From IMG/VR virus record IMGVR_UViG_3300015186_000011, positions 1 to 26,051 of that record: a stretch of DNA of 26,051 nucleotides. One strand, 5' to 3'. Shown here one piece after another: positions 1,344 to 15,465 of the stretch. The notes under the pieces are model-generated. The model had not been told where the DNA came from. It made no database searches and was given only the letters and a program-made list of their open reading frames with translations. Every line of letters begins with the position of its first letter. The first letter of the stretch is position 1. The translations under genes and the position numbers were made by a program. The stretch comes from a virus. Taxonomy: Duplodnaviria; Heunggongvirae; Uroviricota; Caudoviricetes.

Positions 1344-1601
1344 ATGCAGCAGTATCACTATCCACTGGAAGACGGATTTACCGAAAGGATTCACACGCCG
1401 GGAGGCGTCAGATCACTAGTGGAGGGATCGCACTTGATGAAATTACTCCGGGATCTCGATAAGGATGGATTTAATGTCGATGGCCCACTTGCCGAACTGA
1501 CTGCACTGATTAACTACGTCACCAGCTCACAGATGTCTATGCAGGATCTGCAAACACATCTCGACTATTGTGCCGAACAATTACGAAAGCAAACCAGATA
1601 A
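1344..1601 (+). CDS. 85-aa stand-alone homologue of the C-terminal domain shared by the two antirepressors; candidate SOS-inducible antirepressor or modulator
   Basis: ATG at 1344 with GGAG at 1332-1335 (the track's TTG start at 1326 has no RBS). The sequence YHYPLEDGFTERIHTPGGV..LMKLL..L.KDGFNV.G..AELT....Y......L.D.QTH..Y aligns by eye at ~35-40% identity with the last ~80 aa of ORFs 1915-2607 and 3858-4802. Confidence 0.65.
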   Translation: MQQYHYPLEDGFTERIHTPGGVRSLVEGSHLMKLLRDLDKDGFNVDGPLAELTALINYVTSSQMSMQDLQTHLDYCAEQLRKQTR

Positions 1602-3623: not shown

Positions 3624-3785
3624 ATGAAAAAAGCATTTGCTGCACTGTTCGTTTTGTTGTCTCTGGTAGCTTCAACTCAGGCCTTTGCCGGTCGTTGTCA
3701 GCACGACAGCGACACTGCTGCTGACGGCTCCCGCTGCGGTGGGCGTTCTGCGGATTCCCGCCCGGGCGGCGGTGGCATTCGTTAA
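3624..3785 (+). CDS. Small secreted peptide (53 aa) with a signal peptide
   Basis: MKKAFAALFVLLSLVASTQAFA|GRCQHDSD...: a typical Sec signal with an AFA-G cleavage site. The mature ~31 aa carries 2 Cys and a Gly-rich tail. TTGACG (3583-3588)-16-TATAGA lies upstream. The track's ORF start at 3552 is unlikely. Confidence 0.5.
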   Translation: MKKAFAALFVLLSLVASTQAFAGRCQHDSDTAADGSRCGGRSADSRPGGGGIR

Positions 3786-3790
3786 AAACA

Positions 3791-3808
3791 AGGCCGCGAA
3801 AGCGGCCT
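3791..3808. terminator. GNRA-loop hairpin terminator between convergent genes; the U-tract is on the minus-strand (ant) side
   Basis: AGGCCGC-gaaa-GCGGCCT. The minus-strand transcript would continue as UUGUUUUUA. There is no U-tract on the plus strand. Confidence 0.7.
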
Positions 3809-3820
3809 GTGACATGTCAC
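3809..3820. repeat. 12-bp perfect palindrome GTGACATGTCAC (site 1 of 3)
   Basis: Exact copies occur at 22255-22266 and 24520-24531. This one abuts the terminator hairpin at 3791-3808. Confidence 0.9.
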
Positions 3821-3834
3821 GATAGTTTCGTTTT

Positions 3835-4091
3835 GCACATCCCTGTGCCGCCGCCCGTCAGAAGAACCCTGCCTTGTCGTTGATGTACTCCGCGTGCGTC
3901 TGGATATCACGCAGGCATTTGCTCACACCAACGATGTAACAGAACATGGTGGTCAGCTCCGCCGCCGCGCCCGATACATCGTGCCCGTCTTCCTGTAACT
4001 GGTTCAGCAGATTCATCAGCAGTGAGTTCTCCGTCAGACCGAGAACACCAGACGGAGAATGAATCAGACTGCGGTAGCCGGGCTTCAATGG
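3835..4091. repeat. Right arm of the 257-bp inverted repeat (partner 2374-2630)
   Basis: See the left arm. It covers the 3' end of the ant homologue plus ~23 nt beyond its stop. Confidence 0.9.
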
Positions 4092-4802
4092 ATAACCATA
4101 ACATTTTGTCTGTGTTTTAATTGCCTCACGAAGCGCATCTAACATCTTGACTGCCACTTCATCATTCTCTGATGCAGATCCAGCAGGGAGATACTCCCCT
4201 TCAAGCGGAACCCGAGCAACAAGAGACAACGCTTCGGCAAATTGATCTTCACCAATTTCTTTGTACGAACAGCCAAAATGAGATTTCAGTGACGACCACA
4301 TGGTGATCATCGCCTTAGCCTGTTTTTCTTTTGGCAGAGACTGACCGCGACTCATGACGAGTTGTTTAATGGCTTCCTGCTGTTCAGTTGTTATTTTACC
4401 CGGCAACGCCTTTTTAGCTTTGCGTGGGTTAACCACATGGCCTTTAGTCCAGTACTCGTAGAGCACATCGTCACACTCTTCCTGATACTGGATTACCTTG
4501 TCGCGGATTTCAGGGCGGACTTTGTTAGGGCTGATGGTTTGCAGCCAACCTGCAAGTTTGCGTAAAGCAAGACAGATAACCAGACGACGCTGAGTATCAC
4601 CGGGGAGCTGAATGGTCATTTCGACCATGCAGCTCTTAAAGCGTTGTTGCAACTTGCGGAACTGCGTTTTCCAGTCCAGCCCCATACCTTCAACGACTGG
4701 TTTCATTGGGGTGTATGGTTCGCCGTTATGATTGACAACATAAAGCTCTGCGCCGTGGAATGGCACGTTGATAGTAGATACCGCTGTTGCTATACTCGTC
4801 AT
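3858..4802 (-). CDS. ant: Antirepressor, P22 Ant-type N-terminal domain (314 aa)
   Basis: VPFHGAELYVVNHNGEPYTPMKPVVEGMGLDWKTQFRKL...LRKLAGWL fits the P22_AR_N pattern from memory. It sits directly downstream of an Arc-like gene and opposite an Mnt-like gene, as in P22 immI. Confidence 0.85.
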   Translation of the reverse strand: MTSIATAVSTINVPFHGAELYVVNHNGEPYTPMKPVVEGMGLDWKTQFRKLQQRFKSCMVEMTIQLPGDTQRRLVICLALRKLAGWLQTISPNKVRPEIRDKVIQYQEECDDVLYEYWTKGHVVNPRKAKKALPGKITTEQQEAIKQLVMSRGQSLPKEKQAKAMITMWSSLKSHFGCSYKEIGEDQFAEALSLVARVPLEGEYLPAGSASENDEVAVKMLDALREAIKTQTKCYGYPLKPGYRSLIHSPSGVLGLTENSLLMNLLNQLQEDGHDVSGAAAELTTMFCYIVGVSKCLRDIQTHAEYINDKAGFF

Positions 4803-4877
4803 GTCGTTAATTCCTATACGTAGTTTTACGATACTGAAGCCCTGACGGTCTGGCCACCGTGGGGCTTCGCTGTTTTA
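4803..4877 (+). ncRNA. sar-like antisense RNA (~70 nt) covering the ant RBS and the arc-ant spacer
   Basis: A strong promoter, TTGATA (4768-4773)-17-TATACT (4791-4796), lies inside the first ant codons and points the other way. Predicted TSS is ~4803. A terminator hairpin at 4836-4868 is followed by GCTGTTTTA. Geometry and size mirror P22 sar. Confidence 0.5.
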
Positions 4878-5042
4878 TGCCACGCTATTCTTCTCACCAG
4901 TGAGTCCATACACTTTCCTCAGCTGATAGATAATCTCTGTATTGAACTTTCGGCATTCTTTTTCGCCATTTCTTTCAATAGCTAACTTCACATCGTCCGG
5001 AAAACGAACTCGTCGTTGACACATCTCTTTTGCTTTTTGCAT
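4875..5042 (-). CDS. arc: Arc-like ribbon-helix-helix repressor (55 aa)
   Basis: ATG at 5042 with AAGGAG 7 nt upstream (the track's start at 5063 lacks an RBS). RVRFPDDVKLAIERNGEKECRKFNTEIIYQLRKVYG parallels P22 Arc (FNLRWPREVLDLVRKVAEENGRSVNSEIYQRVMESF). Confidence 0.75.
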   Translation of the reverse strand: MQKAKEMCQRRVRFPDDVKLAIERNGEKECRKFNTEIIYQLRKVYGLTGEKNSVA

Positions 5043-5132
5043 TTCATATCTCCTTAGCCCCACCGTGGGGCAAAATAATTGTCACACCGTGCGTCATTGA
5101 TGTCAAGCACACGGTGAGGCATACTTCAATCA
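5043..5132. promoter_or_regulatory. Divergent overlapping promoters with RHH operators (Pant-like / Pmnt-like)
   Basis: Minus strand: TTGACA (5106-5101)-17-GACAAT (5083-5078). Plus strand: TTGATG (5097-5102)-17-CATACT (5120-5125). A 15-bp palindrome GCCCCAC-C-GTGGGGC sits at 5057-5071, at the predicted +1 of the ant promoter. CACCGTG (5085-5091) and CACGGTG (5110-5116) each lie in a promoter spacer. Confidence 0.6.
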
Positions 5133-5162
5133 TTGCAAGTAACTCAATATTTGGTGAAGAAC

Positions 5163-5594
5163 ATGAGCAGAGAAGATCCACAACTAAGGATCAGACTTCC
5201 CGTTGAAGTAAAAGAAAAAATAGAAATTTCTGCAAAAGCCAATAAGCGATCAATGAACGCTGAAATAGTACAACGTCTTGACACCAGCTTTCTGAAAGAT
5301 ATTCATGAAGATGACGTAATTTCTGCTTATGAAGCAAAAATTATTGCAAACAATGCACGACATGAAATATCAAATATTATTTTCAAAAGAACCTTTAATG
5401 AAATTAATAAGAAAATAACACTTGGACATACAAGTTTTTATATAAACCTTAATGACCTTGAACTGGAATCACTTGCAGATAATGATTACCAGATCATCTT
5501 TGAAAAAACATTTAATAAGCTCAATGAACTAGGTTACATCATCTGTGAAAACTCATGGGATGCAGATGGTTTTGGAATTGAAATACCTGAATAG
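5163..5594 (+). CDS. mnt: Mnt-like RHH repressor with an extra AT-rich C-terminal domain (143 aa)
   Basis: MSREDPQLRIRLPVEVKEKIEISAKANKRSMNAEIVQRL aligns with P22 Mnt MARDDPHFNFRMPMEVREKLKFRAEANGRSMNSELLQIV (from memory). The ATG at 5163 follows GGTGA. P22 Mnt is only 83 aa, so the last ~90 aa are additional. Confidence 0.8.
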   Translation: MSREDPQLRIRLPVEVKEKIEISAKANKRSMNAEIVQRLDTSFLKDIHEDDVISAYEAKIIANNARHEISNIIFKRTFNEINKKITLGHTSFYINLNDLELESLADNDYQIIFEKTFNKLNELGYIICENSWDADGFGIEIPE

Positions 5595-5605
5595 GAAGAA
5601 CAAAA

Positions 5606-5632
5606 GGCGTGTACATATTACACGTCTTTAAT
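5606..5632 (+). terminator. Hairpin terminator after the mnt-like gene
   Basis: GGCGTGTA-catat-TACACGTC (8 bp including one GU pair) followed by TTTAAT. Confidence 0.55.
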
Positions 5633-5684
5633 ACAATTGAAAAACGCCACATTACTGATGTATGTTACAACAAGGAGCGATATT

Positions 5685-6248
5685 TTGAAAACCATATCTA
5701 TATTAAAGGTTGCATTAGGCGTCGCTATTATTTTGACTCTCTCAATATTGTTTTATTTTTACCACAAAAAAACTGCTATTGCTCTTGATGGTCACGCGGC
5801 AAACTCATTTTTCTCAGAGTACATAGTGCCGCTATCAGGAAGCGGTATAACAAATAAATATACTGACTATGACATCAAATATGGAATTGATGATGGGGAG
5901 ACTATTGTATTACATGTAATCATTAAAAACCTAATGACAGTAAATAAAAATACAGACTTCAACGATAAAAATACAATACATCACAACAACAGCAAAACAT
6001 TAATTTCTTATAGTAGCAACATCTATACGGATAAATACCTAAAATACATATCAGAAGATACAATAAAAGAAACCCGCGAAAAGTTAAAAAACATATATTG
6101 TGCATCCGGCAGTTTTCACAAATTATCGCCGCAAGAGCGTTTATTCTACGAAGCAAGAAAACAACGTAAGTCAATAATATTACATTATTATGCTGATTCA
6201 GGGGAGTCACTCATATTTAATATTGGGGTTTCCCCTGAATCATGCTAA
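5685..6248 (+). CDS. AT-rich N-terminally anchored membrane protein (187 aa from TTG 5685; 196 aa from ATG 5658); SieA-position moron
   Basis: AAGGAG at 5672-5677 lies 7 nt before TTG 5685, giving MKTISILKVALGVAIILTLSILFYFYHKK (a signal anchor). The ATG at 5658 and the TTG at 5637 have no RBS. The region is visibly low in GC compared with its flanks. I recognise no family. Confidence 0.6.
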   Translation: MKTISILKVALGVAIILTLSILFYFYHKKTAIALDGHAANSFFSEYIVPLSGSGITNKYTDYDIKYGIDDGETIVLHVIIKNLMTVNKNTDFNDKNTIHHNNSKTLISYSSNIYTDKYLKYISEDTIKETREKLKNIYCASGSFHKLSPQERLFYEARKQRKSIILHYYADSGESLIFNIGVSPESC

Positions 6249-6259
6249 AGGTGTTTAAC

Positions 6260-9200
6260 TCACCGCATCACCGGATCCACCTGGTTTATTAGTGGCGCAA
6301 TCCAGAACAGGTTATTGCCGGGTATCAGGGTTCGGACATTATGCACAATACGATCACCGGCATCACCATTCAACACTCCTGCGGTCACATCAATGATGCT
6401 ATCCGCAAGACCAAATGACGGTCCGAATAGAGATCCTACGAATCCACGACTGGCATACCTAGACTGTGTGCCAGTGCCAAATAAAGCCCCCAGCCCAACA
6501 GCACCACCAGTAGCCTTTTCAGCCATGTTGTTATATTCCATCAATGGCCCAAGAATACCGGATCTATCTATACCCTCAAGCACCAGCTTCTCTGGTGACC
6601 AGTCAACATTTTTCCCTTTCGATGCTTCTTTAAGCGCATAGACCAGTGAGCCAAGAGCAATCTGAAATGCAGTGCCATAATAAAATTGCGCAGTTCCTTC
6701 CTGTAACCCACCAAGTAGCGCACGGTTGTATGAAGCCGTTGTGAATGATTTAAACTGAAATATCGTTCGCCCCATTGGAGTACTCGCCCATAAAGGTGTG
6801 TCACCAATACCGGGGGTGATGATAGTGTTATTAACGTCTTTCAGAACCGCTGACTGGAATACTCCGGCAACGTACTGATCGTCCCATTTATCAAAGTTAC
6901 CAATGTGCCATCCATCAATTACCTCACCATGTTTCTCGAACTCACTGCGAATACGCGCAGCCATATTGTCGTTGATACCGAGTTTTGCCATGCGACGTGC
7001 AGAAAACGCACCAGACAAAATACCGTCTGACGTGAGCATTCCGTTCATGGATTTGTTTATGTCATTAAATCGATCCATGAGTGTCAGCTTGCCGAAGGCA
7101 TCAGTAATTCGCTCCATTCCTGCTTCGACTGCTGTTGTCCTGGAAGAACTGTCAACAAGATCACCAATTGCACGAGAACGTGAATGTAGTACAGTTTCCA
7201 ATCCAATCCCCATCTTCAACATCTCTTCTTTGCTGGCCTTAAATGCCGGTGATTGGGATATCTGAGAAGCATAGCCTTTCATGGTGTTACGGAAACCATT
7301 AACCATAACCCCTCTGGCCAGATCTGGAATAGCTGATACTGTCATTCCACCGAGTTTGGTCGTGAAGTTCACATCCCGCAGAAAAGCGCCAGCACGAACA
7401 AAAAACGAAGACGGGTCATCAGGCATACCATATGTACCAACAAGACGATCGCGTAATGCTGTTATGTCTCTGAGATCATTTGCTCTTGATTTTGAAAGTC
7501 TGGACTGTTCTTTCCGTAATTCCTTTTCGTACTTTCGCATTAATGAATCGAGTTTACCCTGAGGAACAACTTCACCATTGCTCTCATAACGTGCTTTCAG
7601 ATTTGCCACACTTTCGTCATATTTCGCCTTTATTTTTTCAGGCACTTCCCGTAACAGACTGTCATATTCGTCCTCAATTAATTGCAGACGCTCAGTCATA
7701 GTTCGTTTGCCAAATGTTCTCGTCAACTCAATTTCTGCTGCCGCTTCACGGATATGACGTTGCAGCACGTAATTCACATCACTTTCAAGATAATCCCTGA
7801 TAAGACTATCAGGAACATTTAATGTTCTTTCTTTCGTACTACCTGCGGCTTTTACAGAAAATACGCTGACAAAATCCTGTGGAACCTTAGCACCAGTAAT
7901 TTTATTAATTACGATATCCGCTGCAATTTCAGCATCCTCAGGATCCAGTGTTTTATTGCCTCTCGACCACCAGTCAACCAAAATACGTCGAAATTTATCG
8001 CGTTCACTGATTATTTTTCCAACTTTATATATACGTGGAAAATAGCTTGCCTGGCCTAATGCTTTCAGTTCTTCATCTGGCGGTAATAAACCAAGCTTTT
8101 GCATTTCAACCTTCACCCGATTTAATACAGTTCGCATCGCCTGCGCCGTTTCCTGAACAACAGGATTAGCATGCACATCACCGCTTCGCATAGCATTCCC
8201 AACCTGCTGACGAAATGAATCAAAACTCATGTCGCCACCATCAGCTTTATACTTTGCGTATGCCTGTTTATTTCCGACAACAACAGCAGCTTCTTCACGC
8301 TGCCATCCACGTGTACGGGTTTCTACAGCTACCGGTGTTTCAATCCCCCTTTCATTTCCTTTAAGGGTGAAATTATTTTCGGCTAACTCCAGCGTTGTTT
8401 TTCGCACTGTCTTGGACGGAGACTCCATTAACCTTGTCAAAGGAGTAAGATAGCTCCCTGCTTTCCATGCAGCCTTTCCAACCCACCCACCGGAAACAGG
8501 GGTTAAATCATCCAGAGTCGCTGTATCAATTTTCATAGCACCAACACTACCACCATCAGAAAGCGAAGCGGCAGCCCTGTCAGTCGCTGATGTAATGCTC
8601 ATATTATCAAGAGCATCAGCAACCTCACGCGTGGCTGCAGCCCGGACGGATGGCGAAAGCGCAACACCAGCACTGGCAAACACGCCGCTCATCATCGCAC
8701 CCGCTGCAACGTGAGCGGCACTTTCACCCCATGAGCGTGTTATTTGCTGATTATTCAGCACAACCTCGCTTAATGCTGTACCGGCAGCACCAATCGCAAT
8801 CTGTGAGCCAATACGCGCCAGTGCCCCTCCTTGAGCACCGGGGATAAACATTGACGCAACAGTAACCGGATCCATTCCCGCAGCAATACTGGCAAGAGTT
8901 CCAACTACGCCAGCATCAGACAATAAACGTCTGTCTTCATTTTCATCATCTATCTGCTGCTTAATCCACGCCGTTTCCTCTGGCGATCGGGAATCTGCAA
9001 ATTTCGCCCCCCAGTATTCATAACCGTGCAACTCATTTTTATCAGCATATGGGTTATAACCTTCGACCGGTTCAAACTGTCTGGCTGGTCGGAAAAAACC
9101 AGCCAGAATATTGTTCTGTCGCATTGCAGCCCCCCATACGGAAGGCTCCGGTGGCAATGGCTCAGGATTAGCCCCTTCCGGAAGGGCAACATCAAACCCA

Positions 9201-13000: not shown

Positions 13001-15465
13001 CAGAATCCCCCAACAGTAAGACGAGGAATAACGGCAAGAACAGACAGCGGCAACGGGTCAAGCTGACGGATTCTTACACGTCCGTTTTTGCCCCAGTTAC
13101 TGTCCAGTTTCACTTCTACTTTTCCGGTAGCGTCATCAACAGGATCATCGTAGAACTCGAATTCACGCTGTGGATATTCGTACCATTTACCGCCGGGCGT
13201 AGTCGCCCAGATGCCACGACTGGCATTCACAACCAGAGTAACGGACGGGATCACCTGTTTTTTGTCCAGCAGCGTTTCCTGTCCGTTAATGTTGATATCC
13301 AGTGTTTCGAATTCAGCAGTTATTGGCAGGCCGATGTGCACTACAGCCCCAGGTGATTCCAGCGTGACGGCACCTCCGGAAACCACTTTCTGTGGTTCCA
13401 CGTTCGCATCAGAGAGAATGTTTACGGTCTGGCCTTCAAGATGAGACAGGCCTCCAAATGTCCGGCGCGCCATCTGCCAGTTCGTGGTGGCCACATTCCT
13501 GAGGGATGGCGGGACGTTCCTGTTAGCACGAACCACTACAGCGGTATTGCTGGTTACAGAAATAATGTCGCAACGTAATTCTTTTGACACTTCAGTATCA
13601 GGATCAGTTCCGGTATAAGGGAACTGTAGTTGCGCGCCGACATCACTACTGGTGAAGTACGCACCACCAGAAACACTGATTGTATATTCCGCACGGTAAT
13701 CCCATTCACCAGAACCACCAGTGATGGTCATCGTTCTGTCAGACGTATTTCTTCCATCATAGCTAAGGCCAGAATCAACAAAGAAAGCATCTTCATCGCT
13801 GGTAAATAAACGGCTGGACAGTCGCTCTATGTATCTCACTGTTTGCCCGTTAACGGTTCGGTTAACGACGAAATACACCGCATCTTCATTGCCTTCGCTG
13901 ATACTGCATGTGCTTTCATATTTTCCGGTACTGGATTGTGGTGCCCATGCAAAAACCTGCTGATCACGCAAATAGGTCATCACCAGTAATTTACCGTCAT
14001 CACGAATGCAGAAGGCGCTGGAGTAAGGGACAATCGAGAAGCACCAGTCAACAATGCTGTGCTTCTGAAAAAGATGATTGGCAAGGATGGTCAGGTCGTT
14101 CCCCTGATAGCCGTCAACATCGAATGAGTAGGCCAGATCACGGACAACACTGCCTTTCTCCTGGACGAACAGAGCAATATTCGCCACGGCAATTGGTGGG
14201 ACATTGCTCGAGCCATTTGATCCCTGAGAGCTGAATGCAAATGATGATGGGGTAAGCACTTTGTTCTGGTCGCCAGTGATGACGTACTCACCTCCGGAAG
14301 TCAGCGCCACCAGCGAACCAACATCAATCAGGTGACGGATCTCATTAACCTGACGCCCGGCATAGGTGTAGATAATTCTGTCGTCATCCTGCGTAGGATT
14401 GCTTTTGCCAAAATCCTTATAATCCCCGGTACGGCTGGCCCAGATAGTCTGAGGGAACGCAGTCGATGCGGCGAAGTAAAGGCGTTGTTGATAATAAACA
14501 ACAGTGCCAGGATAACCGTTAATACTGTTCCAGGCATATTTAGCCCATTTATAGCTGGCATTATCCTCGCCAACTACCTGCGAAGGGATATAGGAAATCA
14601 CCTCGGCAGTTGCAGTAGTTCCATTTGCAGCAGAGATACGGGCAATGCCAAAACCACTGTGCAGATACTCCCACTCAATGCCGGTATCATCATCACCGGA
14701 TCCGCCCCAGCCATCCCATGATGTGCCTTCTGTATGCGAAGGGCGCAAAGTGCCTGTTTTGCCTGCTGTAACGGCGCGATAGTAGTTACTGTCTGCACGG
14801 CGAATATCGCCAATCGACGTACTCTTACTGGTTTCCCATACCGGCACAGAATCCACTGCAGGCTGTTCCAGATAGAACAATTTGCCTACCTGCTCCGCGC
14901 CAAAAATTGAGGCGCTTGCCGTTAACGTAATTGTCCCAGTGCTGGCGCTGGCATAAACCGTCACTGACTCGTCAATATTGATATCTTCAAATGGCCCGTT
15001 CTTCGTTACCACATCAACCAGTTGCCAGTTGTCATGCGCATAGCGGCGCAACTCTTTCGGCGGGTATGCCGGATGAACCAGCGTAAGCACGTCTGCGCTT
15101 TGCGTGAATTTAATTCGGAACAGATCGGCTTCAGTATATGGCGTGGCAATTTCATAAATAACATTGCTGCTGTTCAGCACCAACGCACCATCTTTGATAA
15201 CGCGCATGTACTGGTGTCCGAACTCCAGAGCATAAGTCTGAACCGTCGAGAACTGGAACGGGATCAGGCGGCATTTCCGATTTGGGTATTTGGCGGCACC
15301 GACAAAACGCGTACCAGGTCGATTCTCAACGCCGCCATACTGCCGCACGATAAAGTTATCGCACTTGCGCAATGCCACCTGGTACTTCGCCATGTCGATA
15401 CGACCGTACAACGACGGTCCAATCTCACCACCGGCAAAGCTGGGCTGGATCCAACTGATAGCCAT
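13000..15465 (-). CDS. Tail nozzle/hub protein (tail tubular protein B-like, 821 aa)
   Basis: The N-terminus MAISWIQPSFAGGEIGPSLYGRIDMAKYQVALRKCDNFIVRQYGGVENRPGTRF is the pattern I associate with podovirus nozzle proteins. The size (~90 kDa) and the position after the adaptor fit. Confidence 0.75.
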   Translation of the reverse strand: MAISWIQPSFAGGEIGPSLYGRIDMAKYQVALRKCDNFIVRQYGGVENRPGTRFVGAAKYPNRKCRLIPFQFSTVQTYALEFGHQYMRVIKDGALVLNSSNVIYEIATPYTEADLFRIKFTQSADVLTLVHPAYPPKELRRYAHDNWQLVDVVTKNGPFEDINIDESVTVYASASTGTITLTASASIFGAEQVGKLFYLEQPAVDSVPVWETSKSTSIGDIRRADSNYYRAVTAGKTGTLRPSHTEGTSWDGWGGSGDDDTGIEWEYLHSGFGIARISAANGTTATAEVISYIPSQVVGEDNASYKWAKYAWNSINGYPGTVVYYQQRLYFAASTAFPQTIWASRTGDYKDFGKSNPTQDDDRIIYTYAGRQVNEIRHLIDVGSLVALTSGGEYVITGDQNKVLTPSSFAFSSQGSNGSSNVPPIAVANIALFVQEKGSVVRDLAYSFDVDGYQGNDLTILANHLFQKHSIVDWCFSIVPYSSAFCIRDDGKLLVMTYLRDQQVFAWAPQSSTGKYESTCSISEGNEDAVYFVVNRTVNGQTVRYIERLSSRLFTSDEDAFFVDSGLSYDGRNTSDRTMTITGGSGEWDYRAEYTISVSGGAYFTSSDVGAQLQFPYTGTDPDTEVSKELRCDIISVTSNTAVVVRANRNVPPSLRNVATTNWQMARRTFGGLSHLEGQTVNILSDANVEPQKVVSGGAVTLESPGAVVHIGLPITAEFETLDININGQETLLDKKQVIPSVTLVVNASRGIWATTPGGKWYEYPQREFEFYDDPVDDATGKVEVKLDSNWGKNGRVRIRQLDPLPLSVLAVIPRLTVGGF

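Follow-up and report, generated by a model that had tools for sequence, protein, structure and literature searches.

The immI region of phage P22 is the textbook case for ribbon-helix-helix (RHH) repressors, overlapping promoters and control by antisense RNA, and is usually seen as a peculiarity of P22-like phages. Here we describe a relative of this region in a 26,051-nt stretch of viral DNA (IMG/VR record IMGVR_UViG_3300015186_000011, positions 1 to 26,051; hereafter the window), in which an mnt-like gene diverges from an arc-like gene and ant, with a sar-like antisense RNA lying over the start of ant. We consider it likely, with a probability of roughly 0.7, that this is an immI-type antirepressor cassette, homologous to that of P22, which a phiV10/epsilon15-like prophage has acquired at the variable site that separates the internal-virion (ejection) genes from the tailspike gene.

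A second system relevant to this locus is the repressor-antirepressor pair Rep-Ant of the epsilon15-like Salmonella phage SPC32H, whose complex we take to be the subject of PDB entry 5D50; the SPC32H ant gene is reportedly under LexA control, as Kim and Ryu are said to have described in 2013. For P22, sequence and annotated features were taken from NC_002371, in which Pant (14793-14821, plus strand) and Pmnt (14798-14826, minus strand) interdigitate, the -35 element of one lying over the -10 element of the other. P22-like phages carry, between the ejection genes and the tailspike gene, an 'ant moron', a highly variable and independently expressed insert that often includes immI genes and of which sixteen genomes yielded ten types (Villafane et al. 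2008, PMC2629481). The window has the same kind of variable insert in the same interval, but the ant moron has been described for P22-like phages only, whereas the carrier here is an epsilon15-like podovirus and the relatives of the insert lie in tail operons of siphovirus-type prophages.

Escherichia phage TL-2011b (NC_019445) matches positions 3700-5800 of the window at 99.8% identity, and about 90% of the window can be aligned to it at 97%. TL-2011b is a phiV10/epsilon15-like podovirus from an enterohaemorrhagic Escherichia coli (EHEC) O103:H25 outbreak strain. The paper reporting it gives the phage a few sentences that leave the immunity module unmentioned, and our literature search found no discussion of an immI module in TL-2011b or other epsilon15-like phages. 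On the basis of these alignments, the window is a TL-2011b-like (phiV10/epsilon15-type) E. coli prophage.

The minus strand carries the morphogenesis genes of the window, from about 25.9 kb down to 6260, and also the tailspike gene, which begins near 1148 and continues past the left end. The module is placed between them and is oriented relative to the late operon as it is in P22. An earlier interpretation made from the letters of the window alone (the sequence-only reading) had proposed a complete P22 switch, with mnt diverging from arc-ant, between the ejection genes and the tailspike of an epsilon15-like phage. The layout of open reading frames (ORFs) agrees with the annotated P22 record in this respect and the epsilon15-like setting is confirmed; the position needs one correction, in that about 2.7 kb of other genes separate ant from the tailspike gene. 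In epsilon15 the interval from the last internal-virion genes to the tailspike holds only gp18, a terminator and gp19, and in phiV10 it holds two small ORFs (gp21 and gp22), a Bro-N gene and a gp19 homologue. Genes for Mnt, Arc and a P22-type Ant are absent from this site in both phages, and by this comparison the module is an insertion in an epsilon15-like genome. The arc-mnt region is found at 97% identity or more in 36 of 5,426 complete E. coli genomes, and in both of the two whose genomic context we inspected that context was epsilon15-like.

The genes of the module, the domains of their products and a repeat that bears on the history of ant are as follows.

5163-5594, plus strand: mnt-like gene, 143 amino acids (aa)
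Mnt-like protein: RHH domain at residues 1-46, long helix at 55-86, alpha/beta domain of unassigned fold family at 91-140
4875-5042, minus strand: arc-like gene, 55 aa, first gene of the Pant operon, with its ATG at 5042 and AAGGAG 7 nt upstream
3858-4802, minus strand: ant, 314 aa, with P22_AR_N at residues 12-123, similarity to P22 Ant as far as about residue 214 and an SPC32H/epsilon15-type Ant domain at about 233-309
3876-4106, minus strand: the part of ant encoding the SPC32H-type Ant domain, the presumed Rep-binding effector
3835-4126: one arm of a 292-nt inverted repeat, 91% complementary to the other arm (2339-2630), which is the 3' end of a Bro-N::Ant gene

The Mnt-like protein matches P22 Mnt (BLASTP E value 3e-14, 32% identity across 88 aa), PDB 1mnt (3.5e-7) and Pfam Arc (PF03869; 1.1e-14, 54.5 bits against a cutoff of 20.4), bearing out the proposal of a 143-aa Mnt homologue. 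It is longer than P22 Mnt, which has 83 aa and lacks the additional alpha/beta domain. The GC content falls to 31-36% across 5101-6300, so that mnt and the next ORF are AT-rich, as the sequence-only reading had remarked for the C-terminal part of Mnt.

The Arc-like protein is the weakest of the four P22-homologous parts, and we treat it as a predicted RHH repressor. It resembles P22 Arc in length (55 against 53 aa), N-terminal pattern and operon position, with a BLASTP E value of 5e-5 at 33% identity, and it matches the 'Arc-like repressor' family phrog_228 at 3.4e-5. Profile comparison with hhalign gave a probability of 83% (E value 8.6e-6) to the RHH domain of the long Mnt proteins and 60% to P22 Arc. 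Against PDB sequences, a single-sequence search returned only TALE-repeat noise and a profile search found Arc at E values of 0.06-0.13, which are not significant. A homologue of 55-58 aa is present in 18 of 18 related loci. In E. coli chromosomes the gene is labelled 'hypothetical protein' by the Prokaryotic Genome Annotation Pipeline (PGAP).

The gene order, the orientation relative to the late operon and the type of site, from ejection genes to tailspike, match those of P22 and might be taken as signs of a transplant made recently and directly from P22 itself or a P22-like phage, as might the identity of the 5' part of ant and the sar region (window 4193-4868, from the ant start to about residue 203) to the P22-like phage CUS-3, which reaches 85.7%. 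The identities to P22 Mnt and P22 Arc are low, however, at 32% and 33%; promoter geometry and operator number are unlike those of P22; and the closest Mnt and Arc-like relatives (58-76% identical, among the matches listed) are in siphovirus-type prophages of Salmonella, Enterobacter, Yersinia, Citrobacter and others. Recent exchange with P22-like or Shiga toxin (Stx) phages is apparent for the 5' segment of ant only, and we regard an origin of the whole module by such a transplant as very improbable.

The preferred source, a cassette lineage distinct from that of P22, emerged from a search with the 143-aa Mnt, which found 260 proteins, 120 of them listed. Among the matches listed, full-length relatives have 142-150 aa, are 58-69% identical from end to end and come from Citrobacter, Enterobacter, Salmonella, Klebsiella, Yersinia (including Y. 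pestis), Proteus, Xenorhabdus and others. In every context examined, a long mnt gene is accompanied by a divergent gene for an Arc-like protein of 55-58 aa and by an antirepressor gene of varying domain content. The Arc-like proteins are 58-76% identical to that of the window; the antirepressors combine Bro-N with P22_AR_C, consist of Bro-N alone, carry P22_AR_N with or without P22_AR_C, or are of KilA-N type. A sar-like element is usual, and the cassettes lie within tail or late operons of siphovirus-type prophages. The module of the window is therefore one member of a portable family, to which P22 immI is a more distant, short-Mnt relative. The idea of a transplanted P22 immI thus holds for the homology of the parts to P22; their source is this distinct long-Mnt lineage, at 58-69% identity.

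Two members of the wider group deserve mention for their surroundings. The Y. pestis cassette, comprising long mnt, an arc-like gene and a Bro-N antirepressor gene, sits inside a lambda-like tail cluster, with the gpI/gpJ homologues on one side and those of gpK/gpL on the other; nearby are genes for IS200-type transposases and the STnc490 RNA in two copies, and its protein is found on 557 contigs. In E. coli APEC20/16 (NZ_CP127297, 3595424-3600602) an immI variant occurs in a P22-like prophage: mnt is followed by the gene for a ClpP-like protease, and a ClpX C4 zinc-finger gene separates arc from ant. The 5' end of its ant together with the sar region is 88% identical to that of the window.

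The antirepressor is chimeric. Over residues 1-214 it is 39% identical to P22 Ant (BLASTP E value 1e-42), and it matches Pfam P22_AR_N (PF10547) at 2.9e-45 and 153.6 bits. Nothing beyond residue 214 resembles P22 Ant, and no match to P22_AR_C (PF10548) was found at E values up to 0.1. Instead, residues 233-309 match PDB 5d50_E, 'Anti-repressor protein', with a phmmer E value of 7.5e-14. The C-terminal domain that the sequence-only reading had described as swapped is therefore of the SPC32H/epsilon15 type. In a gap-free alignment of SPC32H Ant, epsilon15 gp19 and the Ant domains of the window, 28 of 86 columns are invariant. Searches with tblastn found the domain in all epsilon15-like phages, whether as a free-standing 86-aa ant product (SPC32H), as epsilon15 gp19 or as the C-terminus of Bro-N proteins (phiV10-like phages). 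The ATG at 4802 is consistent with the N-terminus of P22 Ant and with a ribosome-binding site covered by sar; PGAP calls a 300-aa ant from a later start in E. coli chromosomes.

The window encodes this domain three times, in a small ant gene (1344-1601), in the Bro-N::Ant gene (1915-2607) and in the ant gene of the module. The last 84 aa of the module's Ant and of Bro-N::Ant are 93% identical (83% across 101 aa by tblastn), and the 292-nt inverted repeat joins the two genes at the DNA level. We interpret the repeat as the footprint of an exchange of C-terminal domains, the simplest reading of the alignments being that a resident Rep-binding domain recombined onto an incoming P22-type Ant. Such a domain capture would place antirepression of an unrelated repressor under Mnt/Arc/sar control. 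This fusion to a P22-type N-terminal part distinguishes the domain from the Ant of SPC32H, which stands free at 86 aa. The repeat also has between its arms 1.2 kb of small genes resembling morons, for phrog_10654, a DUF2335 membrane protein and a membrane-associated protein of 54 aa, and could mediate inversion of that segment.

A different view of this chimera is that Ant acts chiefly in trans, through its P22-type N-terminal and middle part, on lambdoid repressors of other prophages such as the Stx phages of the same EHEC host, the SPC32H-type C-terminus being secondary; both targets are possible for one protein. P22 Ant inactivates several lambdoid repressors, and this known breadth would suit such a role. 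So would antirepressor cross-talk between prophages, which is mentioned in PMC7380047. Many Stx1 and Stx2 phages have ant genes that are 90.6% identical to the DNA for Ant residues of about 77-203, and the similarity to CUS-3 given above extends over the same part of the gene. However, the 93% identity of the C-terminus to Bro-N::Ant and the inverted repeat argue for a recent and selected capture of an effector domain, and in SPC32H the 86-aa domain alone makes up the whole antirepressor. We therefore consider action mainly in trans unlikely, and prefer a role directed at the phage's own Rep.

The partner expected for such a role has a counterpart in this phage type, since gp10 of TL-2011b matches the Rep chain 5d50_A over its full length (E value 6.6e-42). 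As in SPC32H, the small ant gene (1344-1601, plus strand) is divergent from the tailspike gene at the homologous position. Its product is nearly identical to SPC32H Ant (E value 4e-47 to 5d50_E), and a perfect match to the LexA-box consensus, TACTGTATAAACATACAGT, lies at 1305-1323, 21 nt upstream. The phage thus has a native antirepressor with a consensus SOS box besides the Ant of the immI module.

The control region lies between and within these genes. Promoters were called by a consensus scan that counts matches out of 12 hexamer positions.

5106-5078, minus strand: Pant-like promoter, TTGACA (5106-5101), 17-nt spacer, GACAAT (5083-5078), 10/12, with TG before the -10 element
5097-5125, plus strand: Pmnt candidate, TTGATG (5097-5102), 17-nt spacer, CATACT (5120-5125), its -35 element overlapping that of Pant
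5057-5071: O1, palindrome GCCCCAC-C-GTGGGGC, at about +1 to +15 of Pant, the counterpart of the P22 mnt operator by position and sequence
5080-5096: O2, TGTCACACCGTGCGTCA, overlapping the Pant -10 element and spacer, at the Oarc position of P22
5105-5121: O3, AAGCACACGGTGAGGCA, within the Pmnt spacer; in relatives CCCCAC-N-GTGGGGCA
4768-4796, plus strand: Psar-like promoter, TTGATA, 17-nt spacer, TATACT, 10/12, with TG before the -10 element, inside ant codons 3-12
4804-4871, plus strand: sar-like RNA, matching Rfam RF00262 over model positions 1-68 of 68

When the control region is aligned with that of P22 as DNA, the two coincide at the Pant -35 element, at the operator core, at each arm of the sar terminator, and at the ant start and Psar -10 element. 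The core CCACGGTGG aligns with the annotated P22 mnt operator, both lying just downstream of the Pant -10 element. Around it, GCCCCACGGTGGGGC in the window and the annotated P22 operator GGTCCACGGTGGACC are equally far from that element, binding in the window being predicted. The palindrome at O1 and its likeness to the P22 mnt operator, which the sequence-only reading had pointed to, are thereby borne out, and the consensus scan independently lists the proposed Psar and Pant promoters. Both systems also have a second operator in the Pant spacer. Back-to-back promoters with overlapping -35 elements are indeed present in the window, with starts about 61 bp apart; they had been put forward as a likeness to P22, but the P22 promoters interdigitate. 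A Pmnt interdigitated in the P22 manner was considered and rejected, the corresponding hexamers (AAATAA and ATTGAT) being poor; no P22-type Pmnt hexamers were found in the control region of the window.

The motif CACNGTG occurs four times in 262 bp, beginning at 4855, 5061, 5085 and 5110. Four copies had been claimed, and four are present, the second at 5061-5067 rather than 5062-5068. In 3,000 Markov-1 simulations, four copies never fell within 262 bp (0/3000) and three did so in 33. The longer CCACSGTGG occurs twice in the window against 0.12 expected. We compared the control region across 18 loci from more than ten genera. The O1 consensus is GCCCCAC-N-GTG(A/G)GGC, and its CACNGTG is kept in 16 loci and degenerate in two Proteus loci; O2 is identical in 16 of the 18, and O3 is found in all of them. 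The O2-O3 distance is always 25 bp and the O1-O2 distance 24-27 bp. The central base is C, G or A among loci, as expected for a dyad-symmetric protein site. Pant is likewise conserved in the related loci, and its TTGACAT aligns with the Pant -35 element of P22.

The three CACNGTG operators of the window differ from the P22 set of Omnt and a TAGA-type Oarc, and so does the strand face of the proteins expected to read them. The Mnt-like and Arc-like proteins both have Q-x-R/K-x-R on the recognition strand, which fits a common CACNGTG core, whereas P22 has H-N-R in Mnt and Q-N-R in Arc. By positional homology we infer that O1 is the counterpart of Omnt and O2 that of Oarc. To assign the operators to proteins, covariation of operator sequence with strand residues was tried and rejected: the two loci with a variant O2 are those with a variant Mnt N-terminus, an agreement with a chance of about 0.04 that is confounded by phylogeny and too weak to use.

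The predicted sar-like RNA is antisense to the ant ribosome-binding site, as is P22 sar, and arises from a promoter inside ant, as in P22. It scores 44.8 bits against RF00262 (gathering score 43; E value 3.3e-7), where P22 sar scores 97.8, so that the match is full-length but barely above threshold. Its predicted fold has the two hairpins of P22 sar. The loop of the 5' hairpin presents an anti-Shine-Dalgarno UCCU (4812-4815), and the GC-rich 3' hairpin (about 4835-4869) is followed by GCTGTTTT, with a T-run at 4873-4876. The hairpin at 4836-4868, at which the short RNA was originally suggested to end, folds as described. The Psar -10 element (TGCTAnAnT) aligns with the Psar region of P22 and is kept in most related loci. 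Among 18 sequences the basal stem covaries, and the upper stem of the terminator varies freely with compensatory changes. In relatives, RF00262 scores 59.4 bits in the Enterobacter loci and 41.5 bits, just below threshold, in a Salmonella locus, and gave no match in the Y. pestis locus at E values up to 0.01. None of the records that we inspected annotates a sar RNA.

The upper stem of the terminator differs from that of RF00262 and holds the fourth CACNGTG, within a 12-mer, CCACCGTGGGGC, that has exact copies in O1 (5060-5071) and in the stem (4854-4865). We considered this copy as a further operator and dropped it: 17 related loci have no CACNGTG there, and the Salmonella loci have CCACCGTTGGGC, which gives a one-mismatch version of the 12-mer. 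Because the motif lies in the freely covarying upper stem, we take it as lineage-specific or coincidental; it is unexplained and probably not an operator, although the 12-mer could be an auxiliary operator of this lineage.

These patterns of conservation bear on the alternative that the prophage carries the module as an inactive remnant. Decayed genes are frequent in the ant morons of P22-like phages (PMC2629481), and mnt of the published TL-2011b sequence is frameshifted at codon 9-10. Against such decay, the mnt, arc-like and ant ORFs are intact in the window and in the inspected E. coli genomes; operators, promoters and the sar hairpin are kept, with compensatory changes, across genera; and the DNA-reading N-terminus of Mnt, MSREDPQ-R-IR-P, is unvarying in 40 homologues. 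A dead module is, in our judgement, the least probable of the explanations weighed here.

A working switch would operate as follows. In the lysogen, long Mnt made from Pmnt would bind O1, by homology with Omnt, and probably also O2 and O3, keeping Pant shut. After infection or loss of Mnt, arc and ant would be transcribed from Pant, and the Arc-like protein would then feed back on the operators. The sar RNA, from its promoter inside ant, would pair with the ribosome-binding site and start region of the ant mRNA, so that Ant would be made as a pulse only. Ant would neutralise the phage's own Rep through the C-terminal SPC32H-type domain, which would have been captured by recombination with the resident Bro-N::Ant gene. 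The result would be an SOS-independent route to antirepression alongside the native small ant. We infer all of these steps from homology and conservation.

Several observations weigh against this reading. The divergence noted earlier for the Arc homologue shows in its Pfam Arc score of 12.8 bits, below the cutoff of 20.4, and its single-sequence AlphaFold2 model was unreliable (predicted local distance difference test score 60) and was not used for a fold search. The C-terminal domain of the module's Ant has only about 36-39% identity with SPC32H Ant and with the small Ant, a level at which Rep binding is plausible, and the Rep gene itself lies outside the window and was seen in TL-2011b only. 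As judged from sequence, either protein could occupy O1, O2 or O3, the strand face being the same in both. The Pmnt candidate scores only 8/12 and is not listed by the consensus scan. Its hexamers (TTG-M-W-G, and CATAAT or CATACT, mostly CATAAT) and 17-bp spacing are nevertheless kept in the 18 related loci while the adjacent downstream 5' untranslated region is divergent, and this rescues the weak call. Finally, the published TL-2011b sequence has one additional G in mnt codons 9-10 (window 5186-5190; about 7490 in TL-2011b), reading CTAAGGGATC against CTAAGGATC. Because this 1-bp insertion shifts the frame, RefSeq has here only a 'hypothetical protein' of 113 aa that starts at an internal ATG. 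The insertion may reflect a sequencing error in a homopolymer, or the phage, which was recovered as free particles, may really carry an mnt-null allele.

Beyond the acquisition itself, we suggest more tentatively, and at slightly less than even odds, that long Mnt, the Arc-like protein and sar form a portable control cassette that is spreading among unrelated temperate phages, of both podovirus and siphovirus type and in more than ten enterobacterial genera, and is retargeted by swaps of effector domain, with one such swap caught in the act here. On this proposal the C-terminal 90 aa of Mnt, which are conserved, would serve in oligomerisation or in sensing a signal and would couple the three evenly spaced operators, in a logic unlike that of P22.

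The most notable features of the locus are the portability of the cassette, its three-operator back-to-back design and the evident domain capture that would have retargeted the antirepressor. A relative of P22 immI circulates as a cassette in unrelated prophages of many Enterobacterales, among them EHEC-associated E. coli, Salmonella, Enterobacter and Yersinia pestis, with an operator layout unlike that of P22. Domain exchange may be able to re-aim an antirepressor at another family of repressors, and the locus could serve as a natural test case for the encoding of antirepressor specificity. A second, SOS-independent route to induction or anti-immunity in epsilon15-like prophages, if it operates as proposed, bears on prophage stability in pathogenic strains. 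The comparison also exposes gaps in annotation, which leaves sar out, gives mnt of TL-2011b as 'hypothetical' through the frameshift and, in PGAP, labels the Arc-like protein 'hypothetical'.

Downstream of mnt lies an AT-rich ORF (5637-6248, plus strand, 203 aa) whose translation has an N-terminal hydrophobic, helix-like stretch and which sits where P22 has orf59a and sieA. We dropped the idea of a SieA analogue, since the protein has no similarity to P22 SieA. It belongs to phrog_8033, of unassigned function, and is missing downstream of mnt in other cassette loci; we regard it as a neighbour of the switch. The search with PADLOC gave only a weak TIR-like/ThsB match (E value 0.0063), and the ORF may be a superinfection-exclusion or defence moron.

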